Shown: in pieces, positions 22,323 to 61,776 of the stretch
How the letters are laid out: every line of letters begins with the position of its first letter
How positions within the stretch are numbered: the stretch's first letter is position 1
Origin: Candidatus Spongiisociaceae bacterium
GTDB lineage: Bacteria > Actinomycetota > Acidimicrobiia > Spongiisociales > Spongiisociaceae
Direction of reading: 5' to 3'
Length of the DNA stretch: 64,000 bases
Assembly: GCA_965262915.1 (NCBI GenBank)
Contig: OZ253564.1
Coordinates: 4,000,001-4,064,000 of the forward strand
Notes under the pieces: model-generated
Databases searched by the model: none
What the model saw: only the letters and a program-made list of their open reading frames with translations
What the model was told of the DNA's origin: nothing
Program-made: the position numbers and the translations under genes

Positions 22323-23549
22323 TCAGAGCCCGGCGGCGAACTCCAGGGCTTCGTCGAAGCTTGCTTGCCCGAGCACCAGCCTTCGCATCTTCATCAGGGG
22401 CCCCACCCGGTCGATTGCAAAGGCGCCTCCGAATCGATCTCCACGGCGATAGAGCGCCATGAGCGACACTTCGTCGGGTGAGTCGTGGACGAACACGACC
22501 TCGTCCCGGGAGGCCAGTCCTACCAGTTGGAGGCGGTGCCCGTACTGGTCGGACCAGAAATAGGGGATGCCCGAGTAGGCGACCGGGTCGTCGCCTCCGA
22601 AGGAGTTGAGGATGTTGCGGGCCACGGTGGTGGACTGCTCGACGGTGTTGGTCCAGTGCTCGACCCGCATCCGTTGCCGGAGCAAGGGGTTGTACCAGGA
22701 GGCGAGATCGCCCAGTGCGTAGACACCGGGCAGTGAGGTGCGCAAGTACCGATCACAGACCACCGCCCGGTCCAGGTCGATACCGGAACCTTCCAGCCAC
22801 TCGATGTTGGGAATCACGCCGATCCCCACCACCACCACGTCGCACGGGATCTCGGCGCCGTCCGAGAGCCCTACGGACAGGCCATCAGGGGTCTCCTCCA
22901 CGCCCACCACGCCGACCCCGCAGCGGAGTTCGACGCCATAGAGACCGTGGAGCGCAGCGCACCGCTCCCCCACTTCGGCGCCGACGGCCATCGCCAGCGG
23001 CTGGTCGGCGGCTTCGATGATCGTCACGTCGACACCCCGGCTCCGGGCGCTCGCCGCCACTTCGCTTCCGATGAAGCCGGCCCCGACCACCAGCAGATGG
23101 CGGGCGGTATCGAACGAGGATCGGATGGCTGCAGAGTCGTCGAGGGTTCTCATCACGTAGACCGCCGGAATGTCGGCGACACCAGGGAGTCTGCGGGCGC
23201 GGGCACCCGTGGCGATGACCGCGGCGTCGTATTGCAGTGCTTCCCCGGTCCCGAGCGTGATCGTGCGGGCGTCGGCGTCGAGACCCACCGCCGGAGACCC
23301 GAGCCGCAGGTCGATCCCTTGCTCCTCGAAGAACCCCACGGGTCGGAGCGTGGCGTCGGCCGGCTGTTTCTCCCCGGCCAAGACCTCCTTGGAGAGCGGA
23401 GGGCGGTCATACGGCAGGTGCGGCTCGTCGCCCACCAGCGTGATTCGACCCTCGAACTTGAGCCTGCGCAGCCCGGTTGCCGTACGTAGACCACCCAGGG
23501 ACGCCCCCACGATGACTACGGATGGGAGCCCGGGAGCGGGGATGGTCAC
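22323..23549 (-). CDS. FAD-dependent ferredoxin reductase (glutathione-reductase type)
   Basis: GASLGG, PYDRPPLSK, GAGFIGSEVA, YALGD, PYFWSDQY; GTG start at 23549 overlaps the upstream stop (GTGA). Confidence 0.9.
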   Translation of the reverse strand: MTIPAPGLPSVVIVGASLGGLRTATGLRRLKFEGRITLVGDEPHLPYDRPPLSKEVLAGEKQPADATLRPVGFFEEQGIDLRLGSPAVGLDADARTITLGTGEALQYDAAVIATGARARRLPGVADIPAVYVMRTLDDSAAIRSSFDTARHLLVVGAGFIGSEVAASARSRGVDVTIIEAADQPLAMAVGAEVGERCAALHGLYGVELRCGVGVVGVEETPDGLSVGLSDGAEIPCDVVVVGIGVIPNIEWLEGSGIDLDRAVVCDRYLRTSLPGVYALGDLASWYNPLLRQRMRVEHWTNTVEQSTTVARNILNSFGGDDPVAYSGIPYFWSDQYGHRLQLVGLASRDEVVFVHDSPDEVSLMALYRRGDRFGGAFAIDRVGPLMKMRRLVLGQASFDEALEFAAGL

Positions 23550-24592
23550 CCGGTGGGGGCCAGCTCGAACCTGCCGTCGGCGAACTCCATGAGCCACCGC
23601 CGGTAGAGAACCGTACCGAGGTCGGCAGCCTTGACATGCATCTCGGCGCTCAACTCCACGGGAAGCTCCTCGGGACGTTGGGACTCGACCACCGGCTTGT
23701 CCTGGGCGAGAATGAGCCGCTGCATCCGGTCGAACTCCTCGTCCTGATCGAAACCGTAGTTCCGCGCTACGAACGTGAAGCACCGGGTTCGCTTGCGGCT
23801 CACCGGAGCCACGGCGACGAAGAGGATGAAGTTCTCGTCGGGACCGGCCGAGCTGTCGAGCCACATGGCGTTGGGCATGAACACCCGGTATCGCTTCCAG
23901 GCCTCGTAGGTCTCGCCCTCGCCGGCGACCGTGGCGTTCTTGGGGTTGTCCGTGTACTCAAGGAACGGGCCGGCCGTGATACGGAGCTCGCCCCCATCGC
24001 GCCAGGCCTCGTAGTCGGCGATCACGGCATTGTCACGATCACCGAGGATTCCGTGGTGGACATGGGCGAAGTGGGAGAAGTCGAAGTAGTTCTCGAGCCG
24101 GCGGCCCACAGAGCAGTTCCATTCGTAGGGTTCCCAGCGCATGATCCGGTAGGCGGGATCGTCGAGTTCGGGGAGGACGGCGGCCGGGAACACGGGTGGC
24201 TCGTCGGCCAGGCAGGTCCACACCAGGCCTGCCGACTCGACCGCCGGGTAGACGGGAAGCTGGGCTACCAGCTTCCCGTTGAGTTCGGGGCGGGCCGGGA
24301 TGTCCACGACGGTGCCCTCCTTGTCGTACGCCCATCCGTGGTAAGCGCACCGGAGCCAGCAGCCGTCGATGCGGCCCAGGGAGAGGGCCGAACCCCGGTG
24401 TCGGCAGATGTCGTCGAAAACATGCGGCTTCCCGTCGAGACGGGCCACCGCCAGTCGGGTCTCGAACAAGGTGACCTGGTGGGGTTTGTCAACCAGATCC
24501 TCGGAGAACGCCACCGGATGCCAAAAGCGGCGGAGCTGCTCGTAGAGGAGCGCCTCGCCGGCCACGTCGAGTTGGGTGGTTCCCTGCTTCAC
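23546..24592 (-). CDS. Rieske non-heme iron oxygenase, NdmA/VanA-like (paralog 1)
   Basis: CRH...CAYH Rieske ligands; ENYFDFSHFAHVH; QDKPVVESQRP. Confidence 0.92.
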   Translation of the reverse strand: MKQGTTQLDVAGEALLYEQLRRFWHPVAFSEDLVDKPHQVTLFETRLAVARLDGKPHVFDDICRHRGSALSLGRIDGCWLRCAYHGWAYDKEGTVVDIPARPELNGKLVAQLPVYPAVESAGLVWTCLADEPPVFPAAVLPELDDPAYRIMRWEPYEWNCSVGRRLENYFDFSHFAHVHHGILGDRDNAVIADYEAWRDGGELRITAGPFLEYTDNPKNATVAGEGETYEAWKRYRVFMPNAMWLDSSAGPDENFILFVAVAPVSRKRTRCFTFVARNYGFDQDEEFDRMQRLILAQDKPVVESQRPEELPVELSAEMHVKAADLGTVLYRRWLMEFADGRFELAPTG

Positions 24593-24651
24593 AACCGCCT
24601 CCTCGTTGGGTGTCGCTTACCGGTTCGTGTCGCGCTGCTCGGAAGTCGGTT

Positions 24652-24852
24652 CTAGCCCGTATGAACGGTTATCGCCTCCACCGGACAGCAGACTTCGGCG
24701 CTGAGAGCATCGTCGACCAGTTCGGCGGGAACATTCGGTTGGAGCACGATGATCTCGCTGTCGTCATCGGCAACCTGGAACAGATCCGGCGCCACCGACG
24801 CGCACATCCCGGAAACGATGCATGTCGCATGGTCGAGTTCTATTGTCGCCAC
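24652..24852 (-). CDS. Ferredoxin, [3Fe-4S]-type
   Basis: CIVSGMC...APDLF...CCPVEAI; GGAGGAG RBS. Confidence 0.88.
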   Translation of the reverse strand: MATIELDHATCIVSGMCASVAPDLFQVADDDSEIIVLQPNVPAELVDDALSAEVCCPVEAITVHTG

Positions 24853-24936
24853 GCCGACTCCTCCGCTCGTTCAAGAACTACTGCCATCAGAATTATAGCT
24901 GACACCAAATGCCGCCTAGGGGAAAACCGACCGGAA

Positions 24937-24953
24937 TATTGATTGGATCAATG
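24937..24953. promoter_or_regulatory. Candidate operator TATTG-N7-CAATG
   Basis: Palindrome upstream of ferredoxin-Rieske-reductase genes; weaker copy at 24894-24910. Confidence 0.6.
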
Positions 24954-25038: not shown

Positions 25039-26103
25039 TCAAGCAGGCGCCAGTTCGACCTTTCCGTTGGCGATGTCGAGCAGCCAGCGCCGGTATTCGA
25101 GGGTCCCGAGGTCAGCGCCTTTGACGTGCAGTTCGGCGGCGAGGTCGGCGGGCAGTTCCTCGGGACGTTGCGATTCTACGATGGGTCGGTCCTGATCGGT
25201 GACCATCTGGGCGAAGGCCCTGAAATCCTCATCACTCCCCGGGTAGTTGCGGCCCACGTAGGTGAATGCCCGGGTCCGCTTGCGGTTCACGGGCGCCGCG
25301 GCCACCCACAGCACGTAGTCCTCCACCGGCCCGGCCGCGCTGTTGAGCTTCATGGCGTTGGGCAGGAAGACCCGGTAGCGCTTCATGGCCTCGTAGGTCT
25401 CGCCCGAACCGGACTCGGGGTTGTTCTTCACGTTGTCGGTGAACTCGACGAACGGCCCGGCGATGAACTGGAGCGCTCCCCCGACCCGGTGCACGTCGTA
25501 GTCCTCGATGCGGGGATGGTTGCTGTCTCCGAGGATGCCGTCGTGAACCCAGGCGAAATGGGAGAAGTCGAAGTAGTTCTCCAACCGGCGGGGCAGCGAG
25601 CAGTTCCACTCGTAGATGTCCAGATGGACGAAGGTGTAGCTCGGGTCGTCGAACTCGGGGATGGCGGGCACCGGGAACTTGGGATCGCCCAGCGTGGTGT
25701 AGATGAGCCCCGAGACCTCCACCGTGGGGAACGACGGCACCCGGACATTGCGGAATGCGGGAGAGAGTTCCTCCCGGGCCGGTACTCGGGTGACCCTGCC
25801 CTCGGCGTCGTACGTCCAACCGTGATAGGCGCAGCGGAGCTCGCAACCGTCGATCACCTTTCCGAGCGAAAGCGCCGAGCCCCGATGCCTGCACAGGTCC
25901 TCGAACACGCGGGGGGCACCGGCCAGGCGCACTACGACCAACTGCTCCTCGAACAGGGTGAACGCCTGGGGTTCGTCCTTGAGTTCGTCGGAGTAAGCGA
26001 CCGGGAACCAGAAGTTCTCCCGCATCTGGTCGTAGAGCCGGTCCTCGGCCGCTACGTCGAGGAAGTCGCTGGTCGCGTGACGGGTCGCCATCCGTCCGCT
26101 CAC
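25039..26103 (-). CDS. Rieske non-heme iron oxygenase, NdmA/VanA-like (paralog 2)
   Basis: CRH...CAYH; RRLENYFDFSHFAWVH; QDRPIVESQRP. Confidence 0.92.
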   Translation of the reverse strand: MSGRMATRHATSDFLDVAAEDRLYDQMRENFWFPVAYSDELKDEPQAFTLFEEQLVVVRLAGAPRVFEDLCRHRGSALSLGKVIDGCELRCAYHGWTYDAEGRVTRVPAREELSPAFRNVRVPSFPTVEVSGLIYTTLGDPKFPVPAIPEFDDPSYTFVHLDIYEWNCSLPRRLENYFDFSHFAWVHDGILGDSNHPRIEDYDVHRVGGALQFIAGPFVEFTDNVKNNPESGSGETYEAMKRYRVFLPNAMKLNSAAGPVEDYVLWVAAAPVNRKRTRAFTYVGRNYPGSDEDFRAFAQMVTDQDRPIVESQRPEELPADLAAELHVKGADLGTLEYRRWLLDIANGKVELAPA

Positions 26104-26224: not shown

Positions 26225-26488
26225 TCATCGGTATACCTTGTCCCGCCTCCCGATTCTTACCACCAAAACACGCACCGCGTCATCTTGGAGGTCGCAGACA
26301 ACCCGATGACTGCCCACCCGATAGCGCCACAGTTTCCCGAGCGGGCCGGTCAGCGCTTGGCCGACGCGGCGCGGGTCCGCGGCCGCAACCCGCTCGTCCA
26401 TATAGTTCATGATACGGCGCGCCGTGTTTCTGTCGAGCTTTCCCAGCTGGGTCTTGGCAGTGTCGGTGTACTCAATCGTCCAAGCCAA
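26225..26488 (-). CDS. RelE/StbE family toxin
   Basis: From TTG at 26488: AWTIEYTDTAKTQLGKLD...LWRYRVG...IGRRDKVYR; overlaps the antitoxin end. Confidence 0.9.
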   Translation of the reverse strand: MAWTIEYTDTAKTQLGKLDRNTARRIMNYMDERVAAADPRRVGQALTGPLGKLWRYRVGSHRVVCDLQDDAVRVLVVRIGRRDKVYR

Positions 26489-26699
26489 GATCTTTCCTGA
26501 CGTCCGCGGCGGCATGAACGTGTTCCTGGCCTTTGCGGATGCGTTCGAGAACGTCTGCGGCCAGGTAGTAATCCTCGATATCCTCGAGCCCGCGGTCGAT
26601 GATCTCACGGAGGTAGAAGGCCTTCGTACGCCCGGTCTGGGTTGCCAGGAAGCGGAGCCGCTCCTCGGTTTCGGGTGACAGCCGCAGCGACGTGGGCAT
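26472..26699 (-). CDS. RHH-type antitoxin (RelB/StbD-like)
   Basis: TSLRLSPETEERLRFLATQTGRTKAFYLRE...LEDIEDYYLA. Confidence 0.88.
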   Translation of the reverse strand: MPTSLRLSPETEERLRFLATQTGRTKAFYLREIIDRGLEDIEDYYLAADVLERIRKGQEHVHAAADVRKDLGLDD

Positions 26700-26886
26700 G
26701 TGGTACTTCCTCCGCTTGTAGTGTGTGTATTCACTGTATCACACCGTGTCGTTTCGAGGATCGGGAACGGCTACGCGAGTCTTGTTCGGGGACATCTCCT
26801 GCCTCCGCGTGGAATGACGACGGCCAACGTGTAGCCCTCTCGATGCTCACCGAATACCCTGGTCAGGGGTAGTGGCGAACATACCC

Positions 26887-27387
26887 CTATGTTGCCTTGC
26901 GGCGCTCCACTCCCCACACCGAGCACACCGCCTTGACGATGTTCTGGTAGCCGGTGCAGCGGCACAGGTTTCCGGAGAGGAGATCGACCACCTGCTCCGG
27001 TTCCCGGTAGTCGTCGGGGTCGACGCTCTCCAGCGTCATCAGGAATCCGGCCGTGCAGAAACCGCACTGCATGGCGTGGTTCTCGTGGAAGGCCTGCTGC
27101 ATCGGCGTGAGTTCCCCGTCTGTTGCCAGGTCCTCGACGGTCCTGATCGTGCATCCGTCGACTTGGACGGCCAGTGTCGAGCAGGACCGGATGGCGTCGC
27201 CGTCGACGATCACGGTGCAAGCCCCGCAGTAGCCGTGCTCGCATCCGACGTGGGTACCTGTGAGGCCCACCACGTCCCGGATGAAGTCGGAGAGCAGCAG
27301 CCGGGCGGGCACCCGGTACGTCACCTTCATCCCGTTGATCGTGACCGACACGTCGGCCTCTCGAGTGCCCGGGTTGGAAGCCATCAC
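26887..27387 (-). CDS. Xanthine/CO dehydrogenase family [2Fe-2S] small subunit (CoxS-like)
   Basis: GCEHGYCGAC, QCGFCTAG, NLCRCTGY. Confidence 0.93.
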   Translation of the reverse strand: MMASNPGTREADVSVTINGMKVTYRVPARLLLSDFIRDVVGLTGTHVGCEHGYCGACTVIVDGDAIRSCSTLAVQVDGCTIRTVEDLATDGELTPMQQAFHENHAMQCGFCTAGFLMTLESVDPDDYREPEQVVDLLSGNLCRCTGYQNIVKAVCSVWGVERRKAT

Positions 27388-28259
27388 ACCCCCGTCCTAT
27401 CTCCGTTGGATGTCACCACCGACCGGGCGGTCCTGATCAGGAGGGCGCCGAGCGCCTCACGCCGGTACTCGCCCGTAGCATGGACGTCGTCGACTGCATC
27501 GGCAGCATCCTCGTAGGCCGCTGTGTACAGATCCGATCCGTCGTCGCCCGCTGAGAATCCTCGGATCGATTCCTCGGCGGCTGCCATCCGCTGCGCTACT
27601 CCGCTCACCCCGAAGCTGACCAGCCGTGCCCCGCTTATCGCGTCCCCCTCCATGTCGAAGGCGGCCGCCACACCGGCGATGGCGAAGTCACCCGACCTCC
27701 GGGCGATCTCTTCGAGAACGGTCACAGTCCCGGAAGGCTCGGCCGGGAAGCGAACCGCGGTGATGATCTCCCCGTGGGAGAGGTCGGTCCAGAAAGGCCC
27801 GAGGAAGAAGTCACGGGCCGCCACGCTCCTCGCCCCCGCCGGCCCCTCTACGAGTAGCGTCGCGCCGGACGCAATGGCCATCGCCGGTAGTTCAGCGGCG
27901 GGATCGGCATGAGCCAGACTGCCGCACACCGTGCCCCGGTTCCTGATCTGCAGGTGCCCGACGAAGCGCAACGCCCGGCGCAGCCCGGGAACCACGGCCG
28001 CTACCCGGTCTGAGCCCATGACCCGGCTCTGGGTTACGCAGGCCCCTATCGTCACTTCTTCCCGACCGACCTCCAGGCTGTCGAAGCCTTCCACATGGCG
28101 GATGTCCACCAGTAGGTCGGGTACGGCCAGGCGGAAGTTCATCGTAGGAATGAGGCTCTGGCCGCCCGCAAGTACCTTCGCCGCGTCCGCAGAGCCAAGG
28201 GCCTCTATCGCATCTTCGACGGTATCCGGCCGGTAGTAGTCGAAGACGGCGGGCTTCAT
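27384..28259 (-). CDS. Xanthine/CO dehydrogenase family FAD subunit (CoxM-like)
   Basis: MKPAVFDY, LAGGQSL, IRNRGTVCGSLAHADPAAE. Confidence 0.93.
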   Translation of the reverse strand: MKPAVFDYYRPDTVEDAIEALGSADAAKVLAGGQSLIPTMNFRLAVPDLLVDIRHVEGFDSLEVGREEVTIGACVTQSRVMGSDRVAAVVPGLRRALRFVGHLQIRNRGTVCGSLAHADPAAELPAMAIASGATLLVEGPAGARSVAARDFFLGPFWTDLSHGEIITAVRFPAEPSGTVTVLEEIARRSGDFAIAGVAAAFDMEGDAISGARLVSFGVSGVAQRMAAAEESIRGFSAGDDGSDLYTAAYEDAADAVDDVHATGEYRREALGALLIRTARSVVTSNGDRTGV

Positions 28260-30682
28260 GATCCGCCCCCCGGACCGGACGCTTCCCGTATGGCTTGGCG
28301 GATGGCGGAGGGTGTCACCGGGGTGGCCTTGATCTCCACACCCAGGTCGGCGAGGGCCTCAGACACCGCCCCTACTACCACCGCCGCCGGGCCGATGGTT
28401 CCCCCTTCCCCGCAACCCTTGACACCGAGGGGCTGCTCGGGAGCCGGCGTCTCGAAGTGTTCGACGGTCATCTCCGGTACCTCGGAGCAAGTGGGGTACA
28501 GGTACTCCATGAAGGAGGCGAACAGGGGCCGGGCCGTCTCCGGGTCGTACTGGAAGTGCTCGTACATCGCTCCGGCGATCCCCTGCGCCACTCCCCCGTG
28601 GACCTGCCCGTCGATGATCATCGGGTTGATCATCGTGCCGCAGTCGTGGACCACCACGTAGTCCTCGATCTTGATCTCCCCGGTGCTGACCCGCACGCTG
28701 ACCACACCGGCGTGGGCACCGTTCGACCAGCTAGCCGCCGCATTGACCTTGCCGTCGAGGCCGGGTAGGTGCTCAAGTTCAGGCGGCTCGAAGTAGCCCG
28801 ACATCTCCAGGCCGGGCTCCATGCCCCGCGGCAAGTCGACGGTACGAACCCAGGCTGCGGTCGCTACCTGGGACCAGCTAACCGTCGGCGTGTCACTGCC
28901 CGCCACATGGAACCGGCTCTCGGTCAGCACGACATCATCGGCCGCCGCCTCCAGCATGTGGGCGGCGATCTCCTGCGCCTTGGCCAGCACCCGATCGGCG
29001 GCCATCAGGATCGACCCGCTCATCACTATCGCCGAGCGGCTGCCCCACGCCCCCAGCCCGTATGGTGCACGGTCTGTGTCACCCATGATGACCGTCACAT
29101 CGTCGGGATCCACGCCCAGCGCCTCGGCGGCCAGCTGGGCGGCGGTCGTCTCGGTGCCCTGGCCCAGGGCCGTTGTGCCCAGACCCACCCTGACCGCGCC
29201 GTCAGGATCGACCCTCATGGTGGCCGAGTCGTACCCGGCCCAGTGCCCGGTGGTGAGGTGGTAGGTGGGTGTGGTGGGCTCCACGTAGTTGGTGTACCCC
29301 ACCCCCACCCGTACGTCGGGATCGTCGGCGTACCTGGCCCGCACCCGCTCGACCGACGGAACAATCAACTCCAGCGCTCGCTCGAAACCTTTGGCGTGGG
29401 AACCCGAATCGATCCTCCCCCCGCCGTGCATCTGGTAGGGCATCTGGTCTTCCTGGAGCATCATCCGGCGACGGATCTCGACCCGGTCGGTCCCTGTGAG
29501 GCGGGCCACCCGGTCGATGATGCTCTCCATGACGAACATGCCCTCGGGCGTGCCAAACCCCCGATAGGCTCCGCTCGGAGTCTTGTTGGTGACCACACAG
29601 AAGTGATGCACCTCCATATTCTGAAAGTCATAGGCCCCCGTCAAGACTCCCCCGGTGACGAAGACGGTGGCAGTGCCGGGCATGAAGATCTCCCCCGATC
29701 CGACGTCGCAGTAGGCCTTGCAGCGGACGGCCCGGATGGTGCCGTCGTCGTCGTAGGCCACGTCCACATCGTGGCGCTGGTCCCTGGCGTGCACCCCGGA
29801 GACCAGATTCTCGAAGCGGTCCTCCAGCCAGCGCACCGGGCGTCCCAGCTTGCGAGCTATCCATGGTACGACCACATCCTCGGGATAGACGTGGGTCTTC
29901 GTGCCGAAACCTCCTCCCACGGCCGGGTTGATTACCCTGATCCTCGGCTCGGGAATACCGGTCATCTCGGCGATCGTGGTACGGACGATATGGGGGCTCT
30001 GCGTAGACGACCACACCGTGAGGTGACCGTCGACCTCATCCGCGAGGACCCCTCGGCACTCCAGAGGTAGCCCGGTCTGGCGCTGGCTGACGTAGGTGTC
30101 CGAGAAGGTATGGTCGGCTTCTTCGAAGGCCTCCCGCACCTCGGGTTTGTCGGCCGGGAAGTTGACCAGGAAGTTGTCGGACCAGCCGTCGTAGAGCTTA
30201 GGGGCGTCCGGGGCGAGCGCCTGATCCAGGTCGGCCACCGTGGGGAGCAGGTCGAACTCGGTGTGGGCGGCCACCAGGGCGGCGGCGTCCTCGGCCACGT
30301 ACCGGTCGGTGGCCACCACTGCCGCGTAGGGCGACCCGACGTAGCGCACCCGGTCCTCGGCGAGGGGGCGCTGGCCGACCGGCTGGATGTAGAGGATCTT
30401 GTGGGGAAAGGAGCCCACATCCGCCAGGTCGCCGCCTGTGAAGACGGCCGCCACCCCTGGTAGGGCGAGGGCCGGTCCGGTGTCGATGCTGCGGATGAGG
30501 GCGTGGGCCTCGGTACTGCGCACGAAGGCCACCTCGAGCATGCCGGGAAGTCTCAGATCGGCGATGTAGCGCTGGCGGCCCATCAACGGAGATCGGTCCT
30601 CCCGTCGGGGCACGGCTCTGCCGATGTGGCCGGCCCGATGACGGATCATCGGGTTGATGCGGGTGGGACTATCTATCGTCAT
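28256..30682 (-). CDS. Xanthine dehydrogenase family molybdopterin-binding subunit
   Basis: VGGGFGTK, AYRGFG, GQGTET, DGQVHGG, KGCGE; lacks the form I CODH AYRCSFR motif. Confidence 0.93.
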   Translation of the reverse strand: MTIDSPTRINPMIRHRAGHIGRAVPRREDRSPLMGRQRYIADLRLPGMLEVAFVRSTEAHALIRSIDTGPALALPGVAAVFTGGDLADVGSFPHKILYIQPVGQRPLAEDRVRYVGSPYAAVVATDRYVAEDAAALVAAHTEFDLLPTVADLDQALAPDAPKLYDGWSDNFLVNFPADKPEVREAFEEADHTFSDTYVSQRQTGLPLECRGVLADEVDGHLTVWSSTQSPHIVRTTIAEMTGIPEPRIRVINPAVGGGFGTKTHVYPEDVVVPWIARKLGRPVRWLEDRFENLVSGVHARDQRHDVDVAYDDDGTIRAVRCKAYCDVGSGEIFMPGTATVFVTGGVLTGAYDFQNMEVHHFCVVTNKTPSGAYRGFGTPEGMFVMESIIDRVARLTGTDRVEIRRRMMLQEDQMPYQMHGGGRIDSGSHAKGFERALELIVPSVERVRARYADDPDVRVGVGYTNYVEPTTPTYHLTTGHWAGYDSATMRVDPDGAVRVGLGTTALGQGTETTAAQLAAEALGVDPDDVTVIMGDTDRAPYGLGAWGSRSAIVMSGSILMAADRVLAKAQEIAAHMLEAAADDVVLTESRFHVAGSDTPTVSWSQVATAAWVRTVDLPRGMEPGLEMSGYFEPPELEHLPGLDGKVNAAASWSNGAHAGVVSVRVSTGEIKIEDYVVVHDCGTMINPMIIDGQVHGGVAQGIAGAMYEHFQYDPETARPLFASFMEYLYPTCSEVPEMTVEHFETPAPEQPLGVKGCGEGGTIGPAAVVVGAVSEALADLGVEIKATPVTPSAIRQAIREASGPGGGS

Positions 30683-30772: not shown

Positions 30773-31663
30773 CTATCGCTCGCCGCGGTGGTAGGGGATG
30801 GTCAACGACAGCGGCACCCCGGAACGGCTGCGGTTGAACACCAGAGCCACGATTGTCAGCACGAACGGCAACGCCAGCAGCAGCTGGTAGGGCAGTTCGA
30901 CATCGCTGGCCTGCAGGGACAATTGCGTTGCCTCCAGGAACCCGAACAGCAACGAGCCGACCAGTACCCAGGTCGCCCTCCAGTTCCCGAATATCACTAT
31001 CGCCAGCGCGATCCATCCCCGGCCGGAGATGATGTCCGGGAAAAAGAGACCGGTCGAGCCGAGTGAGAGGAAGGACCCGCCAAGGCCCGCCATGACACCC
31101 CCGAATAACACTGCTACGTACTGGCGGGAGATGATGCCCACCCCCCGCATGTCGCATGCCTCGGGGTTGTGGCCGATACTGCGAAGCTCCAACCCGTACT
31201 TGGTTCGATACAGGAAGACCCAGATCACCGGGACCATCACGAAGGCGAAGTAGGTCAGCCAGGGCTGGCTCAAGGTCTCGACCGTCGGGATTTCGATGCT
31301 GCCCCCGGCCGCGTACACCGAGCGGTACCAGAAGAACGCCAGACCGATGCCGAGGATATTGAGGGCGAGGCCGGCCACCACCTGGTTCACCTTGGCGGTA
31401 ACGGTCATCAGCGCCATCAGTAGGGCCAGGGAGGCGCCGCCGATGCCTGCTGCCACCAAACCCGCCAACAGGCTTCCGGTCTCGTTGGCGACGTAGAAAC
31501 CGGCGAAGGCGCCCATCGTCATCGTCCCTTCCAGGCTGAGGTTCAGGATTCCGCTGCTCTCGCACACCAGTTCCCCCAGGGCGGTCAGGAGGAGGGGGGT
31601 GGCGATCCGCAACGTGGCCAGCAGGATCCCGAAGATGACCGCGCTGGTGAAGAAATCATCCAT
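30773..31663 (-). CDS. Nucleoside/purine (BMP-type) ABC transporter permease
   Basis: ATPLLLTALGE, GILNLSLEG, GRGWIALAIV, ALPF. Confidence 0.9.
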   Translation of the reverse strand: MDDFFTSAVIFGILLATLRIATPLLLTALGELVCESSGILNLSLEGTMTMGAFAGFYVANETGSLLAGLVAAGIGGASLALLMALMTVTAKVNQVVAGLALNILGIGLAFFWYRSVYAAGGSIEIPTVETLSQPWLTYFAFVMVPVIWVFLYRTKYGLELRSIGHNPEACDMRGVGIISRQYVAVLFGGVMAGLGGSFLSLGSTGLFFPDIISGRGWIALAIVIFGNWRATWVLVGSLLFGFLEATQLSLQASDVELPYQLLLALPFVLTIVALVFNRSRSGVPLSLTIPYHRGER

Positions 31664-49299: not shown

Positions 49300-49460
49300 T
49301 GGTCTGTCTGCAAAACAACTTGTCGTGCCCTGCTTGCCAGCGACACTCCTCGCTACGTTCCGCCTCCTCGACGTACCCTGCGGGTACGCCTTCGTCAGCG
49401 GGCCTCGCGAGGAACACCGCTGCCGGCGCATGCCACAACGCCATTTCACAGACAAACCAC
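49299..49460. mobile_element. MITE-like element (162 bp)
   Basis: TIRs GTGGTCTGTCTG / CAGACAAACCAC, internal hairpin CGTACCC-tgc-GGGTACG; abuts a TAG stop codon. Confidence 0.65.
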
Positions 49461-49510
49461 CAGCAACCGTCGAACTGACCGACGGCGTTCGAGACAAGGA
49501 GACGAGACCG

Positions 49511-53812: not shown

Positions 53813-54409
53813 TCAGAAGGAAGGCGGGGAGGTGACCACGAGGAACCTGCACCCGGCCCGACCGGTCGCCCTCATGGTGTGGGGGATCGTGGCCGGGTAG
53901 GCGTATACGTCCCCACGGGCCAACTCCACAGGATCTGAGCCTTCCAGTTCCACCCGGAGACGGCCCTCCAAGATGTAGATGACCTCCTCGCCTTCGTGGC
54001 CGGCGTTGACCGTACCGGCGCCCGGGACGAAGGTGACCTCGTTCGGTTCCATGAGGTGGGCGTCGCCACGAGTGAGGAACCGCACCGATCCGCCCTCGGT
54101 CAGCTCGTAGGAGTCGCCCTCGCTGTCCCGCACGAGGCTGACCTCCAGCCTCTCCCGGGGTTGGAGCAGGCTGTGGGCAGTGGTCTCGAGAGCCTGGGCG
54201 ACGTTGTGGAGAGCCATCAGGCTCGGCATGGCCTTGCCGTTCTCGAGCTGGCTCAGGAACGGCTGCGACAGGCCACAGCGCTTGGCCAACTGCTGCAACG
54301 TCAGACCCTGTGCCTTGCGGAGTCTCCTGAGCGCTGCCCCCAGAGTCGCCGCCACCGCCTCCCCGTCAACCGATCGGGTTTCCTTACCGGCCTGGGCGCC
54401 ATCAGTCAT
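53813..54409 (-). CDS. XRE-family HTH plus cupin transcriptional regulator
   Basis: LTLQQLA...LSQLENG; HEGEE...PH cupin. Confidence 0.9.
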   Translation of the reverse strand: MTDGAQAGKETRSVDGEAVAATLGAALRRLRKAQGLTLQQLAKRCGLSQPFLSQLENGKAMPSLMALHNVAQALETTAHSLLQPRERLEVSLVRDSEGDSYELTEGGSVRFLTRGDAHLMEPNEVTFVPGAGTVNAGHEGEEVIYILEGRLRVELEGSDPVELARGDVYAYPATIPHTMRATGRAGCRFLVVTSPPSF

Positions 54410-54533: not shown

Positions 54534-55919
54534 CTAGGCGAGCCCGATCCGTGCGATGAGTCCCCGGGCGCGGCCTCGAGCCTCGGAGATCACCTCGTCC
54601 TGATCGACCTGTGTACACTGTCCCTCCTCGACGATGACCTGCCCGCCGACGATGTTCATGGTCACATCGCTTCCCCGGGCCGCGTAGACCAAGGCGGTGC
54701 GGGGATCGTGAACGGGGGTCAGATGGGCACGGCTCGTGTCCAGCACGATCACGTCTGCCAGCGCCCCGGGAGCCAAGCGACCGGCATCGATACCGAGAGC
54801 CGCCGCTCCACCCGTGGTGGCGATGCGTAGCGCCTCCGCGGCGGACGACGCCCCCGGGTCGAGTTCCGCCAAGCGGTGCATGAGAACCAGCATCTTCATG
54901 TTCTCGAAGAGATCCTGGCGGTGCCCGCAGGTAGAGCCGTCGGTGCCGAGCGCCACCGTCGCTCCGGCGTCGAGCAGCCGGCGCATCGGCATGACCCCGT
55001 ATGGCACGTACTGGTTGGACATCGGACAGTGCACCACCGCGGTGCGAGTGGAGCCGATGGCCTCGATCTCCTCGTCGTTCACCCAAGTGGCGTGGGCCAG
55101 CACCGCGTCGGGACCCAGCAGCCCTTCTCGGTGCAGCCACATGCCCGGACGGAGCCCGTAGGTCTCCCGATACACGTCGGGATCGCTCTTGGGTGCGCTG
55201 AGGTGGGTGTGCCAACCCGTCCCGTGCGACCGCGCCAAGCTCACGGCGGATGCCAGGAGGTTCTGGTCGGTGTAGACGGTATTGATCGGACCGGGCCACA
55301 CCGCTACTCGAGACCCGGGTGGCCGAGCCTTGATGCAAGCCTCGGTGATGCCCAACTCTTCGTCGTCGGTGAGCGGAAAAGCCTTTCTCGGCAATCCCTG
55401 GCGCTCGGCCAGCGCGGTGTAGCCACCGGCCACACCCCGAGCCACCACCCCCCTCAGCCCCACCTCCTCGATCGCGCTCGCCACCGCCAGCGTGGTGTCG
55501 TAGTCCGTGCGACCGTAGTGATGATCGAGCAGGCTGGTGGTCCCCGCCAACGCTGCCTCGACCGCACCCAGGTATACGGCGGCCTTCGTTTCCTCTGGTG
55601 TGATCTCCGCTGCGTAAGGCCACATGAACCTGCTCAGCCACTCCCAACCAGGCAAGCCTTCGCCGAGTGTGCGACCCAGCGCTTGGAAAAGGTGGTTGTG
55701 GCAATCGACCAGCCCCGGCATCACCAACCGACCACGGTACGAGATCACCCGCTCGGCCTGGTACCCGGAAATCTCGTACCCTTCTCCGACGGCCACGATC
55801 CGGTCCCCCACGATCGCCACGAACCCGCCCTCGACAACCGGCCGTTCCGGATCAAGGGTGACAACAGTACCCCCCTCGAGAATAAGGTCGCACCCAACCG
55901 GTTGCTCGTCGGCCGTCAT
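54534..55919 (-). CDS. Amidohydrolase, COG0402 paralog 3
   Basis: PGLVDCHNH, LAHAT, HCPMSN, LGTDG; AAGGAG RBS before ATG 55919. Confidence 0.9.
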   Translation of the reverse strand: MTADEQPVGCDLILEGGTVVTLDPERPVVEGGFVAIVGDRIVAVGEGYEISGYQAERVISYRGRLVMPGLVDCHNHLFQALGRTLGEGLPGWEWLSRFMWPYAAEITPEETKAAVYLGAVEAALAGTTSLLDHHYGRTDYDTTLAVASAIEEVGLRGVVARGVAGGYTALAERQGLPRKAFPLTDDEELGITEACIKARPPGSRVAVWPGPINTVYTDQNLLASAVSLARSHGTGWHTHLSAPKSDPDVYRETYGLRPGMWLHREGLLGPDAVLAHATWVNDEEIEAIGSTRTAVVHCPMSNQYVPYGVMPMRRLLDAGATVALGTDGSTCGHRQDLFENMKMLVLMHRLAELDPGASSAAEALRIATTGGAAALGIDAGRLAPGALADVIVLDTSRAHLTPVHDPRTALVYAARGSDVTMNIVGGQVIVEEGQCTQVDQDEVISEARGRARGLIARIGLA

Positions 55920-55993
55920 GCAGGCTCCTTCGCTCATCCGCATTCCTAGGGGGGAACAATCGTAAAGAGAGCCGTAGCTCACCCGTTCCGGTA

Positions 55994-56986
55994 TTAAAGG
56001 AGAGATCTCCCGAGGCGGTCTTCGATATGCCCGACGCTCCACCGGATGTCATCCGCGGCCAGCACGTCCGGGTCGAACCGTCCAGCGGTGTAGGTAGCGA
56101 CCGAACAAGCGATACGGGCCATGTCCCGAACCACCTCCCGGGTGGGCTGAACATACCGTGCTCCCGTCCGGTACCGGGACTGTTCGTGCCACGTGCTTAT
56201 GGCGGCGGCGCCCAGCGGATCCAGCAGTTGAGGTACCACGCTGCGGTGGGGTTCCACCAGCTGCTCGCACAGCCTGGCGATGTCGTGTCCCCATGCCGAG
56301 CCTCGGGGAGCGGAATCGAGATGTATCAGAGACTTCAATGAAGCTTCTACCGTCCTGTGAGCCTCTCCGCACGCTCGCCGGAGCCTGACCTCGGACAGGT
56401 TGAACGCCCGGTCCGCGTTGCCCGCACGCAGTTCCAATCGTTCCAGCGAGGAAGGCTCGAGGTGACCGAGCAAAGTCACCAACGCTTCGTTCGTTTCGGC
56501 CAGTCGCTCAACGGCTTCCGCGTGATCGCTGGTGGGCACCACCATCTCCTTACCCCAGTTCACGTCTGCGGCAGCCCTCCGGTCAACCAGAACCACCCCG
56601 TTCCTAGCCGCCCGACTCTCGACCGACGTTGTTACCTGCTCGGTCCGGATCTTCCACTCGGGCCTGTCGGTGACGATCACATCGACTGGGTGGCCGGCCG
56701 CCGCCCTCGCCAGCGCCGACAACTCGTCCTGCGATTGGTCACGTCTTCGGTAGTCCAGATCGTCGTAGATCGCCACCAAGTCGATATCGCTACAGATGGT
56801 AGCCTTACCGCGCGCAACCGAACCGAACAATACCACCCGACCCACGCCGGCATCAGCTAACGCTGCTGCCGCCCTCTCGGCATCAGCCCGGCACGGAACC
56901 GATGCCACCACCTCAGCTCTCACCTCCGCCACAACCAGCACTTCCCACTCAGGTGTCCGCCCCATACCTACCCGCGTACTCCCCAC
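55994..56986 (-). CDS. Fused minimal nucleotidyltransferase (MNT) - HEPN protein
   Basis: LFGSVARG...SDIDL; C-terminal EASLKSLI...GHDIARL...SRY; true start probably ~56930. Confidence 0.82.
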   Translation of the reverse strand: MGSTRVGMGRTPEWEVLVVAEVRAEVVASVPCRADAERAAAALADAGVGRVVLFGSVARGKATICSDIDLVAIYDDLDYRRRDQSQDELSALARAAAGHPVDVIVTDRPEWKIRTEQVTTSVESRAARNGVVLVDRRAAADVNWGKEMVVPTSDHAEAVERLAETNEALVTLLGHLEPSSLERLELRAGNADRAFNLSEVRLRRACGEAHRTVEASLKSLIHLDSAPRGSAWGHDIARLCEQLVEPHRSVVPQLLDPLGAAAISTWHEQSRYRTGARYVQPTREVVRDMARIACSVATYTAGRFDPDVLAADDIRWSVGHIEDRLGRSLL

Positions 56987-57198: not shown

Positions 57199-57204
57199 AA
57201 GAGG

Positions 57205-58898: not shown

Positions 58899-60125
58899 CT
58901 ATCCGGCCCGACGTAGCCTGTAGTGCGGTAGCGGCACGATCGTCCCGTTGACTTCCCCGCGTACCGGACCCCAGTCCCAGTCGACCTGCACCTGTGTCCC
59001 CGGATCAGCATGAGCCGGCACAACATGGGCGAAACCGATCAGCGACCCGGCCGTGGGGGACCAGGTAACGCTGGTGGTCCGCCCGATACGAGTTCCCTGA
59101 TGGAGGATCGGCAGCGGCAGCCGGATCACCTGCGGCGTTACCTCCGGCGGAATCCCACCGTCATCGTAGAGGGCGACGATCAGGCGATAGTCGATCTGAA
59201 TCCCTACCATCGAACGCTTGGATCCGTTCTCGAACTCACGCTTGAGAGCCTCCCTGCCCAGAAAGTCGGCCTTCTTCCCGAGGTCGACGAAGCGATGCAT
59301 GTTCAGTTCCAGCGGAGTGGTTCGGTTCTCGGCCGAGACCGGGATCGGGTCGCCGAGTCGATCTATGGCGGCCGGCGTGTAGTCGGCGCCCACTATCACC
59401 AAGCCCGCCTCGATCCGCGCCACATCCAGCGCGTGCAGCCCAGCGGCACCCAATCCGAGACGCTCCCCGGCTTCGAACAGCAGGTCCCACACCGTAGCCC
59501 CGTCGCGTGTGGCTACCCAGATTTCGTAGCCCACCTCGCCGGTGAACCCCTGGCGAGACACAATCACCTCCGCCCCTCCGATCATGGTTGTACGGAGCCG
59601 GGAGAAGCGAAGATCCGACCAAGCCTCGCCCGTCGCTGCCTCGAGCACCGCGGTCGACTTGGGTCCCTGAAGCGCCAGCAACCCGTAGTCATGCGTTACA
59701 TCCTCGATCACAACGTCGTAGCTCTCGGCGTGGTGGCGGAACCAGTTCATCATCGGATCAGCCGAGAACAGGAACCTGTCTTCTTCTACCCGTGCAACCA
59801 GACCGTCACCTACCAGGACTCCATCCTCGTTGCACCAAGGGGTGAAATAGACCTGGCCTACCTCGATTCTCGTAGCGTCACGGGTGATGAGATAGTCGAC
59901 CAACCTCATCGCGTCGCGTCCGGCAATGTAGTGCTTGGAAAGGGGCGATTGGTCCAGAGCCGCAGCCTGTTCGCGTATCGTGGCCAACTCGGCCCGCCAG
60001 TCTGTGTATTCGTCGACGATGTGATACCGATCCCAAGCATTCCACTTCTGACGCTGGTTCAACAACGAGGTACGCGGGTAGAACGCAGTCCCGCGGATCG
60101 TCAGATCGGAGGGGATGGAAGTCAT
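58899..60125 (-). CDS. Aminomethyltransferase (GcvT-like, folate-binding) family protein
   Basis: DQSPLSK, LALQGP, SRQGFTGEVGYE, RIEAG, TSVTWSP. Confidence 0.88.
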   Translation of the reverse strand: MTSIPSDLTIRGTAFYPRTSLLNQRQKWNAWDRYHIVDEYTDWRAELATIREQAAALDQSPLSKHYIAGRDAMRLVDYLITRDATRIEVGQVYFTPWCNEDGVLVGDGLVARVEEDRFLFSADPMMNWFRHHAESYDVVIEDVTHDYGLLALQGPKSTAVLEAATGEAWSDLRFSRLRTTMIGGAEVIVSRQGFTGEVGYEIWVATRDGATVWDLLFEAGERLGLGAAGLHALDVARIEAGLVIVGADYTPAAIDRLGDPIPVSAENRTTPLELNMHRFVDLGKKADFLGREALKREFENGSKRSMVGIQIDYRLIVALYDDGGIPPEVTPQVIRLPLPILHQGTRIGRTTSVTWSPTAGSLIGFAHVVPAHADPGTQVQVDWDWGPVRGEVNGTIVPLPHYRLRRAG

Positions 60126-60220: not shown

Positions 60221-60560
60221 TCAACGGCTCTCCCTGAAGTAGGCCCTAGCAAGCGCAGCCGGTGCTTGCGATCGACGCTTCTGTAGCGGAGACAACCACC
60301 ATAACCAGACGGCTACGTGCACGAACTTCACGGCGCTGGCGTTGAGCCTGACCGCGTCGGCGCTCGCCGGGTCGTGGCCAACGGCGCGCAGGTGTAGGCC
60401 GGCCCTGGTGCGAGATATGTACCACGCGGCCACCGCCACGAATACCCAGGATAGGTAGACCACGGGATCGTAGGACAGGAGAAGTGGGCCTATCCCTGGC
60501 CAGTCGCCAACAGATTCTGAGAACATCGGCTCGAAGATCCCGCCGCTGATCCTGCACCAC
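60221..60560 (-). pseudogene. Deleted remnant of a BMP-type ABC permease
   Basis: RTRAGLHLRAVGHDPASADA joined almost directly to the C-terminal APAALARAYFRESR. Confidence 0.7.
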
Positions 60561-60620
60561 CGCCGGGCTACCGGGCCGGCTGACCCGAGACCTCCCTCGT
60601 GAGCAGAGAACCGAGGCCGG

Positions 60621-60637
60621 TATTGTTGACCGCAATC
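60621..60637. promoter_or_regulatory. Candidate operator TATTG-N7-CAATC
   Basis: About 70 bp upstream of Rieske paralog 4. Confidence 0.55.
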
Positions 60638-60708
60638 GAAGAAAAGACGGGCAAGTCGGTGCGGAAACGGAGGTTTCGGGGTCCGGACCGTGCTAAGGGG
60701 AGGACAAC

Positions 60709-61776
60709 ATGACCGTCGCGGACCACTACAGCGTCACCGAAGACGAGATCCGGTTCGATCACACCGCCGAGGAGCGCCTCTACCAAGCGATGTTCGACTA
60801 TTGGCATCCGGTGGTCTACTCGTCCCATCTGAGCGACGACAAGCCGTTGGCGGCCACTCTGCTCGGTGAATCGATCGTGGTGGTCCGGCTCGATGGTGCA
60901 GTTCGTGCCTTCCGCGACCTGTGCGTCCATCGGGGTACGGCCTTGTCGCTGGGCTGGGTGGAGGACGACTCTCTCCGTTGCGCGTACCACGGCTGGAAGT
61001 ACGGACCGGACGGCATGTGCACGGAGATCCCGTCGCGGTTCGGTAGCCGGATCCCCAAGCGGGCCCGGCTGACCCGCTATACGGCGGCCGAGGCGGCCGG
61101 TCTGATTTGGGTATGCCTGTCGGGAGAGCCGAGATACCCGCTGCCCAAGTTTCCCCAACGGGAGGATCCCAGGTTCAGGATCATCGAGGTTCCGTCATAC
61201 AACTGGAACTGCTCGATGCCCCGGCGGATCGAGAACTACGTCGACTTCGCTCACTTCGCCTGGGTACACGACGGGGTGCTGGGGGACCGCAACGAACCGG
61301 AGGTCCCGGACCACGGGATAGCCCGGGTCGGCCACGAGCTGCGTTTCGACCATCCCCACATGGCCGAGCCTCCCGACTCCGGCAAGAACAAGGGCCTCGA
61401 ATCGGCAGGCGAGGCGGTCGACGTCCAGATCGACTACCGCCTGTTCATGCCCAACACGATCCTCCTCGACCAGCGGATACCCGCTCTGGATCAGCAATAC
61501 CTGCTGTTCTTCTCGGTCTGCCCGACAGGGCCCAAGACCAGCCGCTGCTTCACCTTCATGGGCCGCGACTACTCCCTTGACGAGGACACCGACCGGGACA
61601 TGCTCAAGTTCAACGAGTTGGTGATCGGCCAGGATCTCCCCATCGTGCAGTCACAGAGGCCGGAGGAACTCCCCATGGATCTCTCGGCCGAAGTGCAGAT
61701 CAAGGGTTCGGACCGGGTGGCCGTCGAGTACCGCCGCTGGCTCAAGAAGATCGCCGACGGCACGGATACGGCCTGA
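60709..61776 (+). CDS. Rieske non-heme iron oxygenase, NdmA/VanA-like (paralog 4)
   Basis: YWHPV, CVH...CAYH, RRIENYVDFAHFAWVH, QDLPIVQSQRP; GGAGG RBS. Confidence 0.92.
   Translation: MTVADHYSVTEDEIRFDHTAEERLYQAMFDYWHPVVYSSHLSDDKPLAATLLGESIVVVRLDGAVRAFRDLCVHRGTALSLGWVEDDSLRCAYHGWKYGPDGMCTEIPSRFGSRIPKRARLTRYTAAEAAGLIWVCLSGEPRYPLPKFPQREDPRFRIIEVPSYNWNCSMPRRIENYVDFAHFAWVHDGVLGDRNEPEVPDHGIARVGHELRFDHPHMAEPPDSGKNKGLESAGEAVDVQIDYRLFMPNTILLDQRIPALDQQYLLFFSVCPTGPKTSRCFTFMGRDYSLDEDTDRDMLKFNELVIGQDLPIVQSQRPEELPMDLSAEVQIKGSDRVAVEYRRWLKKIADGTDTA

Follow-up and report, generated by a model that had tools for sequence, protein, structure and literature searches.

A conserved gene cluster with four Rieske oxygenases in Candidatus Spongiisociaceae: a candidate catabolic system for purine-like N-heterocycles

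The DNA described here (hereafter "the window") is a stretch of 64,000 nucleotides from Candidatus Spongiisociaceae bacterium. It spans bases 4,000,001-4,064,000 of a genome that is assembled as one contig of 5.06 Mb and is 96% complete. Between positions 22323 and 61776 the window encodes four Rieske oxygenases, here called RO1 to RO4, together with genes for import, electron transfer, hydrolysis and oxidation. An earlier note, made by inspection of the letters alone, read these genes as a distributed catabolic system built on NdmA-like demethylases and probably directed at methylated purines or nucleosides. Our analysis indicates that the genes belong together. With some reserve, we favour the view that they encode a catabolic system for a purine-like N-heterocycle. 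The genes are as follows; ABC denotes ATP-binding cassette and SDR a short-chain dehydrogenase/reductase.

23546..24592, minus strand: RO1, Rieske oxygenase with PF00355 (Rieske) and PF19112 (VanA_C) domains; matches NdmA at 8.3e-44; orthologues of 88-89% identity in relatives; metal ligands intact.
25039..26103, minus strand: RO2, with PF00355 and PF19112; 59% identical to RO1; orthologues of 85-91% identity.
45884..46936, minus strand: RO3, with PF00355 and PF19112; flanked by SDR1 and SDR2.
60709..61776, plus strand: RO4, with PF00355 and PF19112; matches NdmA at 2.2e-54; orthologues of 84-90% identity in the taxonomic family.
22323..23540, minus strand: FdR, ferredoxin-NAD(P)+ reductase (Pyr_redox_2 2.4e-65, and Reductase_C); last gene of a conserved operon.
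24652..24852, minus strand: single-cluster ferredoxin of 66 amino acids (Fer4_13 1.3e-12, and Fer4_15); kept between RO2 and RO1 in relatives.
26887..27387, minus strand: MoS, small 2Fe-2S subunit of a molybdenum hydroxylase (Pfam).
27384..28259, minus strand: MoM, FAD subunit of the molybdenum hydroxylase (Pfam).
28256..30682, minus strand: MoL, large molybdenum subunit (Pfam); best PDB match quinoline 2-oxidoreductase.
30773..31663 and 31656..32801, minus strand: two permeases of a BMP-type ABC importer (BPD_transp_2).
32798..34333, minus strand: ATPase of the BMP-type ABC importer (ABC_tran).
34379..35695, minus strand: Bmp1, binding protein (Bmp domain).
35719..37335, minus strand: FAD-dependent oxidoreductase of the amine-oxidase/phytoene-desaturase type (Amino_oxidase, DAO, NAD_binding_8); first gene of the operon.
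40286..41363, minus strand: Bmp2, second binding protein, frameshifted near 40684 by comparison with an intact 366-amino-acid gene in a related genome (G004, below).
41518..42927, plus strand: Amh1, TRZ/ATZ-group amidohydrolase (Amidohydro_1 2e-57); 85% identical orthologue in the G004 cluster.
45068..45820, minus strand: SDR1 (Pfam).
46974..47723, minus strand: SDR2 (Pfam).
47857..49299, plus strand: Amh2, amidohydrolase (Pfam); 75% identical orthologue in a second related genome (G010, below).
49325..50314, plus strand: alpha/beta hydrolase (Pfam); orthologues of 78% identity in G004 and 68% in G010.
53813..54409, minus strand: regulator with helix-turn-helix (HTH) and cupin domains (Pfam); 81% identical in G004, where it adjoins Amh3.
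54534..56042, minus strand: Amh3, amidohydrolase (Pfam); 77% identical in G004; the real start is probably later.
58899..60125, minus strand: GcvT-family folate-binding, aminomethyltransferase-like protein (GCV_T 4.5e-56).
60221..60526, minus strand: remnant of a BPD_transp_2 permease, 101 amino acids, matching profile positions 122-182 only (1.3e-05).

The four Rieske paralogues reported earlier were confirmed, and each is an intact gene with the paired Rieske and VanA_C domains. Their identities to RO1 are 59% (RO2), 39% (RO3) and 43% (RO4). In an alignment of the four copies, two of the shared motifs that had been claimed, RRxEN(Y/F)xDFxHF and YRxWL, occur in every copy. The other two, FWxPV and QDxPxVESQxP, occur in three of the four; RO4 has YWHPV in place of the former and ...IVQSQ... 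in place of the latter. The motifs attributed to NdmA in the earlier note are indeed present in the NdmA chain 6ick, as judged by alignment. The CxH...CxxH ligand columns of the Rieske domain are invariant among the four copies, NdmA, NdmB and HpxD. The same holds for the two histidines of DFxHFxxVH and the aspartate of (Q/E)DxP, which we take to be the iron ligands of a 2-His-1-carboxylate centre. By domain content and ligand conservation, RO1-RO4 are assigned to the VanA-type Rieske non-haem iron oxygenases, having both the Rieske and the catalytic domain. NCBIfam models gave only weak N-terminal matches to the four proteins (for example 43-67 bits to a methylsterol monooxygenase model with a cut-off of 600).

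We also compared the specificity positions of NdmA and NdmB, defined here as the two sites that differ between NdmA chain 6ick and the double mutant 6icp. The pair is Asn/Phe in NdmA and Gln/Leu in NdmB. In the cluster it is Q/L (RO1), A/T (RO2), E/L (RO3) and N/I (RO4). These residues are consistent with four differing specificities, and do not tell the chemistry. Because HpxD has N/F, identical to the NdmA pair, the two positions do not separate N-demethylation from hydroxylation.

The arrangement of the genes in relatives speaks to whether they form a unit. In the window, an operon runs on the minus strand from 37335 to 22323 and consists of the FAD oxidoreductase, Bmp1 and its ABC components, MoL/MoM/MoS, RO2, the ferredoxin, RO1 and the reductase. 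The remaining genes lie in separate groups: Bmp2, Amh1, SDR1-RO3-SDR2, Amh2 and the alpha/beta hydrolase; the HTH-cupin regulator with Amh3; and the GcvT-family gene, permease remnant and RO4. We searched two related genomes with the window proteins using tblastn. Genome G004 is a 2.8-Mb single-contig genome of the same genus, and G010 represents another genus of the same family. In G004 the window's genes are back to back over ~31 kb, with identities of 69-92%; the GcvT gene there is a 37% identical paralogue of the window's. The order in the first half is second BMP-type ABC importer, RO4, Amh3, HTH-cupin, alpha/beta hydrolase, SDR2, RO3, SDR1, Amh1 and Bmp2. The second half continues with the FAD oxidoreductase, Bmp1, ATPase, two permeases, MoL, MoM, MoS, GcvT-family gene, RO2, ferredoxin, RO1 and reductase. 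G010 has nearly the same order, and also Amh2. RO2 and the ferredoxin are separated there by a second RO4-like gene, and a GcvT paralogue lies upstream of the second importer. Since G004, and nearly so G010, hold the same genes contiguously, we interpret the scattered genes of the window as one ancestral cluster pulled apart by insertions. The proposal that the distributed genes are one system is thus upheld.

The insertions are of mobile-element or defence type, and appear to have stretched the cluster from ~31 kb to ~40 kb. One of them interrupts the operon between MoS and RO2, and is not regarded as part of the pathway:

26225..26734, minus strand: open reading frame (ORF) with a ParE toxin domain (ParE_toxin 2.2e-10).

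No related locus has a counterpart of this ORF. In locus L008 MoS is followed directly by RO2, and in G004 the GcvT gene occupies this position. Between the groups lie a DDE transposase fragment, a PaREP1-family gene and a DUF4143 fragment (37.4-40.3 kb); a SWIM zinc-finger gene (43123-44895); a helicase C-terminal fragment, a Nudix/NrtR-like regulator and a VWA and ARPP-1 gene (50.5-53.8 kb); and a nucleotidyltransferase with ORFs that have no family assignment (55994-58540). The splitting genes are absent from the G004 cluster; G010 has a 64% identical VWA/ARPP-1 homologue between Amh3 and HTH-cupin.

The operon is kept across close relatives. Twelve closest loci were found with RO2 as query: five have the whole 15-kb operon, three agree up to the end of their contig, three differ after RO2 and one has another context. 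The records with these loci are metagenome-assembled genomes (MAGs) whose titles name Acidimicrobiia, Candidatus Spongiisocius or Candidatus Spongiisociaceae; on the strength of such titles the lineage is probably sponge-associated. With RO4 as query and a threshold of E 1e-40 or better, members of the oxygenase family (1-10 copies per genome) turn up in 20 of the 24 other genomes searched from the same taxonomic family, whereas 16 genomes representing 11 other families of the order have none. Among the genomes searched, the 31-kb unit is confined to one taxonomic family. The oxygenase clade is abundant in metagenomes, where 2108 proteins match at E 1e-20 or better; the names attached to these in any source are automatic annotations only. 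Eighteen sequencing runs, from seven studies, hold at least half of the operon's sampled sequence words (shares of 0.86-0.99). No run on record as RNA is listed among those that carry the operon. Two runs guessed to be RNA gave short exact-match contigs scattered over the operon, and are uninformative on expression.

The relationship of the oxygenases to characterised enzymes was assessed using solved structures, plasmid records and trees. The best solved matches of RO1-RO4 are NdmA and NdmB (E 8e-44 to 2e-54, 32-35% identity), and the next best are SxtT and SxtDIOX. The DdmC, carbazole dioxygenase and KshA structures match in the range 1e-12 to 1e-17. An O-demethylase (VanA/DdmC) or steroid (KshA) type was rejected on these grounds: DdmC scores ~1e-15 and KshA 1e-12 to 1e-14, compared with 1e-44 to 1e-54 for NdmA. 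A betaine-, carnitine- or stachydrine-type Rieske demethylase was likewise rejected, as 3vca, which we take to be stachydrine demethylase, and 4qup, named a monooxygenase/demethylase, match at ~1e-7 and by the Rieske domain alone. Among plasmid records, a protein search recovered ndm-type clusters in Pseudomonas putida and P. caffeinilytica, as well as HpxD, which is 33-38% identical to RO4 and bears the annotation of a molybdenum-cofactor-independent xanthine hydroxylase subunit.

Two trees were built, with P. putida plasmid genes, confirmed as near-identical to NdmA and NdmB, as references; reference sequences of SxtT and VanA/DdmC were left out of both. In a tree of 113 rows (LG+G4, quick search), RO1-RO4 are placed within a clade of 37 rows from Actinomycetota and Chloroflexota, with a Shimodaira-Hasegawa-like approximate likelihood ratio test (SH-aLRT) value of 96. 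The NdmA/B, HpxD and NdmC groups stand apart from it. A tree of 53 rows, from a careful search under a site-mixture model, gives the window clade a support of 98/93 and places NdmA/B as its sister (79/95); HpxD falls outside the group of these two, and NdmC is also placed elsewhere. The kinship with NdmA/B claimed at the outset was thus recovered with moderate support in the 53-row tree, while the 113-row tree does not resolve it. On the sequences, RO1-RO4 are not orthologues of NdmA or NdmB, which are their nearest characterised kin. The description of the paralogues as NdmA-like stands in this sense, given the best solved matches and the 53-row tree, and does not extend to orthology: the identity is 32-35% and the clade is separate. 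Other Acidimicrobiia MAGs (loci L030-L045) have Rieske genes in pairs, in which one member clusters with the short NdmC-type partner of the caffeine clusters. This suggests that those MAGs carry a second, Ndm-like system.

The ferredoxin and FdR are the sole ferredoxin and sole reductase found in the cluster, and RO3 and RO4 lack redox partners of their own. This, too, speaks for a single system. The true start of FdR is near 23540; a longer ORF, to 23864, overlaps the upstream oxygenase gene. Its closest NCBIfam models are HcaD and AndAa, both under cut-off. There is no NdmD-type reductase or NdmC/NdmE-type partner, and no VanA_C-only or GST gene, among the ORFs scanned in the window.

Genes for an ABC ATPase and two BPD_transp_2 permeases accompany that of Bmp1, a complete set for a BMP/PnrA-like importer. 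The best PDB matches of Bmp1 (E ~1e-25) are AtzT, which binds guanine and hydroxyatrazine, and 3s99, which holds adenine. The importer postulated in the earlier note is therefore present, but its designation as nucleoside-type is not borne out, since the nearest structures bind free purine bases. According to the AtzT paper (PMC6834077), guanine is bound by AtzT at 110 nM, and adenine and hydroxyatrazine at 2.5 uM and 2.2 uM, respectively; its purine-site residues are given there as Tyr45, Ser97, Glu165, Trp194, Asn218 and Asn220. In an alignment resting on the match at ~1e-25, the aromatic sandwich of Tyr45 and Trp194 is kept in Bmp1. Given the replacement of the four hydrogen-bonding residues, neither plain guanine nor adenine is a likely ligand; we read the site as one for a flat heteroaromatic with another substitution pattern. 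The second importer is degraded in the window. Relative to the G004 gene, Bmp2 reads in frame -3 (41363-40683) and then in frame -1 (40684-40286), and the frameshift is either a mutation, which would make it a pseudogene, or an assembly error. In both G004 and G010 a binding protein, an ATPase and two permeases adjoin RO4, and the permease fragment beside RO4 in the window is read as a leftover of this importer. A vitamin B6 pathway was considered and rejected: "B6 ABC transporter" and "pyridoxal 4-dehydrogenase" models match, far under their cut-offs.

The molybdenum enzyme had been described as a member of the xanthine dehydrogenase family. In PDB searches MoL matches quinoline 2-oxidoreductase (1t3q) at 1.6e-145, then CoxL and Kdh; the xanthine dehydrogenase of R. 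capsulatus matches at 1e-42. All NCBIfam equivalogs are under cut-off, including XdhA (417.6 bits versus 780). The earlier description has to be revised: by sequence, the enzyme is assigned to the Qor/CoxL/Kdh type and is not a bona fide xanthine dehydrogenase. The FAD oxidoreductase has no PDB match at 1e-10, and in a protein atlas its relatives have only the generic names "phytoene desaturase family" and "amine oxidase". Orthologues of 89-93% identity head the operon in relatives, and homologues of 74-77% identity adjoin Rieske oxygenase and amidohydrolase genes in other Actinomycetota (loci L019 and L029).

The other components expected from the earlier note, namely three amidohydrolases, paired SDRs and a GcvT-like protein, are all present together with the importer and molybdenum enzyme. 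The best PDB matches of Amh1 are AtzA and 8-oxoguanine deaminase/AtzB. At the level of the group the match of Amh1-Amh3 is clear, and the group contains atrazine chlorohydrolase, 8-oxoguanine deaminase/AtzB, methylthioadenosine/S-adenosylhomocysteine (MTA/SAH) deaminase and guanine deaminase. All equivalogs are under cut-off; for Amh1 the values are 252.8 versus 532 for 8-oxoguanine deaminase, and 126 versus 375 for guanine deaminase. The SDR1-RO3-SDR2 triplet recurs in G004 (89-92%) and G010. For the window GcvT-family protein, the GcvT subfamily model gives 197.8 bits against a cut-off of 300 and the trimethylamine N-oxide (TMAO) demethylase model 196 against 1100. Genes of this family recur in or beside the cluster in the window, G004 and G010, each time at another position. 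By analogy with the formaldehyde dehydrogenase genes of ndm clusters, this recurrence fits capture of one-carbon units.

Beyond the cluster, nine full-length members of the Rieske oxygenase family are encoded in the genome, and eight of them are packed within 3.92-4.06 Mb of the 5.06-Mb chromosome. The set of four oxygenases also recurs at close quarters in relatives, so that its co-occurrence goes beyond chance. In the flanks (3,900,000-4,000,000 and 4,064,000-4,080,000), module types of the window recur many times. They include four further BMP-type ABC importers, at least five further molybdenum hydroxylase large subunits, five further Rieske paralogues, more amidohydrolases and another GcvT. 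Also encoded there are UbiD/UbiX decarboxylases, formamidase, C-N hydrolases, cytidine/dCMP-type deaminases and CoxD/E-type maturation genes. Together, 3.90-4.08 Mb makes up a zone of ~180 kb for catabolism of C-N compounds.

The contexts of clade members elsewhere point loosely to a purine-like substrate. The sister of RO3 is a Streptomyces gene with a reductase, an alpha/beta hydrolase, a Xan_ur_permease transporter, an amidohydrolase and a regulator of the same type nearby. A clade member in locus L026 adjoins an adenosine-deaminase-family gene, and others adjoin formamidase or C-N hydrolases. On the caffeine plasmid of P. caffeinilytica, a BMP binding-protein gene lies ~6.5 kb from the ndm-like oxygenases. 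In locus L017, from an uncultured member of Acidimicrobiia with a 69% identical RO2 homologue, we noted genes for an MttB-family methyltransferase, a glutamine-synthetase-like and a glutamate-synthase-like protein, homocysteine S-methyltransferase, a BMP-type ABC importer and GcvT, a setting of methylated-amine and one-carbon metabolism.

From these components a route can be sketched, each step resting on gene order and on resemblance to known families. A flat N-heteroaromatic base would enter the cell through one or two BMP-type ABC importers. The four paralogous Rieske monooxygenases, all fed by the single small ferredoxin and single ferredoxin reductase, would then attack different positions of one compound or of related compounds. 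The most likely reaction would be oxidative N-demethylation with release of formaldehyde, and a GcvT-family protein would hand the one-carbon unit to tetrahydrofolate. Two or three of the TRZ/ATZ-group amidohydrolases may strip exocyclic amino or alkylamino groups, and the quinoline-oxidoreductase-like molybdenum hydroxylase may add an oxo group beside a ring nitrogen. The FAD oxidoreductase, two SDRs and alpha/beta hydrolase would process the oxidised ring further, outside the uricase pathway.

Our best single guess for the substrate is host-supplied N-methylated aminopurines or close analogues. The guess is made because the characterised relatives are purine-biased and methylated purines are reported from sponges. 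In a review (PMC5793054), many N-methylated adenines, guanines and isoguanines, and a few xanthines, are reported from sponges and other marine invertebrates. An assignment to methylated purines specifically is tentative, and rather less likely than not. N-demethylation itself is inferred rather than demonstrated, because the same superfamily holds the ring hydroxylases HpxD and SxtT/SxtDIOX; the chances that at least one of the four oxygenases is a true N-demethylase appear evenly balanced. The fullest version of the proposal is speculative and, on present evidence, doubtful: that this would be the first catabolic route for marine alkylpurines, in which a symbiont imports multiply N-methylated aminopurines made by its host and processes them with four demethylases, folate, deaminases and a non-uricase oxidation. 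Such alkylpurines would be, for example, methyladenines, methylguanines or methylisoguanines, and their methyl groups would be removed position by position by demethylases on a common redox chain, with the one-carbon units passing through GcvT-like proteins. The nitrogen of the ring would be gained by way of the deaminases and the ring oxidation.

Several observations weigh against this interpretation. Identity to NdmA is only 32-35%, the sister relation to NdmA/B has only 79% bootstrap in the 53-row tree, and the backbone of the 113-row tree leaves the NdmA/B placement unresolved. The superfamily includes the C-hydroxylases HpxD and SxtT/SxtDIOX, so that the reaction may be of another type, and the SDRs flanking RO3 would also suit a pathway in which a hydroxylated or dihydrodiol product is dehydrogenated. 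The molybdenum enzyme resembles xanthine dehydrogenase far less than it does quinoline 2-oxidoreductase, CoxL and Kdh. Where AtzT has the guanine-contacting residues Ser97, Glu165, Asn218 and Asn220, Bmp1 has His, Asn, Glu and Phe, in the alignment on a match of ~1e-25. Uricase, 5-hydroxyisourate (HIU) hydrolase and 2-oxo-4-hydroxy-4-carboxy-5-ureidoimidazoline (OHCU) decarboxylase have no Pfam match in the genome, at its 96% completeness, and control genomes do match. Hence, the canonical route from purine to allantoin is not present. Outside the taxonomic family, the neighbourhoods of other clade members with at least 15 kb of context are mixed: a BMP gene is found in one of six, an amidohydrolase in two of six and GcvT in none of six. 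Finally, the related genomes are non-independent observations, and the sponge habitat is taken from the names of related records alone.

The same facts can be arranged differently. The Rieske enzymes might act on the same substrate class (purine-, pterin- or pyrimidine-like) as ring or side-chain C-hydroxylases, the products of which are oxidised by the SDRs; the GcvT-family proteins would then serve unrelated one-carbon metabolism, or be folate-dependent demethylases. HpxD, at 33-38% identity to RO4, is about as near as NdmA and shares its N/F specificity pair, SxtT and SxtDIOX rank next among the solved structures, and two SDRs flank RO3 in the window, G004 and G010. Conversely, HpxD falls outside the group of the window clade and NdmA/B in the 53-row tree, the recurring GcvT-family genes fit one-carbon release, and ring hydroxylation is already covered by the separate molybdenum hydroxylase. 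We regard C-hydroxylation throughout as unlikely. More improbable is degradation of pyridine- or quinoline-type N-heteroaromatics, such as N-methylpyridinium betaines or quinolines, in place of purine-like bases. This would account for the closeness of MoL to quinoline 2-oxidoreductase (1.6e-145) and 6-hydroxypseudooxynicotine dehydrogenase, and would suit the UbiD/UbiX decarboxylases, formamidase and C-N hydrolases of the 3.90-4.08 Mb zone as well as the alpha/beta hydrolase and SDRs of the cluster. However, it gives no evident role to three aminohydrolases of the purine/pterin/triazine-deaminase group, and the characterised kin of the oxygenases and of Bmp1 all act on or bind purines (and, for AtzT, triazines). 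A literature search on homarine in connection with Rieske enzymes gave no relevant result.

It is very improbable that the genes are unrelated catabolic modules in a gene-rich, rearranging region, with no single pathway. The window modules are indeed separated by transposase, toxin-antitoxin and defence-type genes, and the same module types are repeated many times over the surrounding 180 kb. The RO4 orthologue is also distant from the other three in genome G022, and on another contig in G021. Yet the modules are contiguous in G004, with no inserted genes detected, and nearly so in G010; neither RO3 nor RO4 comes with its own redox partners; and in locus L015 an RO4-like gene lies inside the RO2-ferredoxin-RO1 operon. 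A single system for purine-like bases therefore remains our preferred interpretation.

Such a system would resemble known ones in part. RO1-RO4 share with NdmA and NdmB of P. putida (6ick, 6icl) the fold, the Rieske and VanA_C pair and the metal ligands, but are only 32-35% identical and form a separate clade. The ndm clusters (plasmid loci L087 and L088) similarly have several paralogues that differ at specificity positions, a one-carbon gene and a nucleobase-type importer nearby. They use a Rieske-bearing reductase (presumably NdmD) or a PDR/VanB-type reductase and a short VanA_C-only partner, whereas the window has a Fer4-type ferredoxin and a glutathione-reductase-type reductase and no NdmC-like or glutathione S-transferase (GST) partner. 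Their one-carbon gene is a glutathione-dependent formaldehyde dehydrogenase and their importer is of the NCS2 type; the window has GcvT/folate and a BMP-type ABC importer instead, and adds amidohydrolases, a molybdenum hydroxylase, SDRs and an FAD oxidoreductase. HpxD of Klebsiella HpxDE (named as annotated, locus L089) is similar in superfamily, in its 33-38% identity to RO4 and in its annotated purine substrate. Conversely, it belongs to another clade, and its hpx-type neighbours (hpxO, uraD and uraH) are not in the window, the Pfam families of HIU hydrolase and OHCU decarboxylase being absent from the genome-wide matches. The molybdenum hydroxylase has the three-subunit L/M/S architecture of quinoline 2-oxidoreductase (1t3q), its best PDB match, and of the CoxL/Kdh branch, but falls under all NCBIfam equivalog cut-offs. 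Bmp1 has the Bmp fold of AtzT and 3s99, its best PDB matches, and keeps the aromatic pair; it differs in the four hydrogen-bonding residues, and E is only ~1e-25.

Neighbouring features of the window were also recorded. A LysR gene at 61892-62809 was dropped from the system, as it is not beside RO4 in G004 or G010 and overlaps the isocitrate lyase start. In the isocitrate lyase ORF (62795-64000, plus strand) ~77 residues precede the region that matches the model, and the start overlaps the end of LysR; the annotated start is probably too early. At 13965-19361 the GC content is 0.565-0.596, compared with ~0.63 elsewhere. This region encodes a cadherin-like-domain protein, a trypsin-like peptidase with PPC and DUF732 domains, and an integrase-core (rve) fragment, and looks like a laterally acquired patch. 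An Rfam scan of the window gave no match at the gathering score.

The earlier note did not recognise the system as described in this kind of actinobacterium. Literature searches for this cluster or clade, for Spongiisocius, and for sponge Rieske or methylxanthine symbionts found no description, in a coverage that leaves out most subscription journals. In the accessible part of PMC11706023, Rieske appears only as a GPP34 fusion partner. The building blocks are all of known kinds. New are their combination, the distinct oxygenase clade and the restriction to one family.

Whatever the substrate, one conserved 31-kb unit, limited to one taxonomic family among the genomes searched, still stands and can guide experiments. 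Regiospecific purine N-demethylases are of interest as biocatalysts. If the proposed function is true, a new clade would be added to the small NdmA/HpxD/SxtT group of purine-directed Rieske enzymes. If the substrates are indeed alkylpurines, the cluster would be a nutritional link from host chemistry to symbiont. It would then provide a testable answer to the question of what an abundant, sponge-associated group of actinobacteria feeds on.

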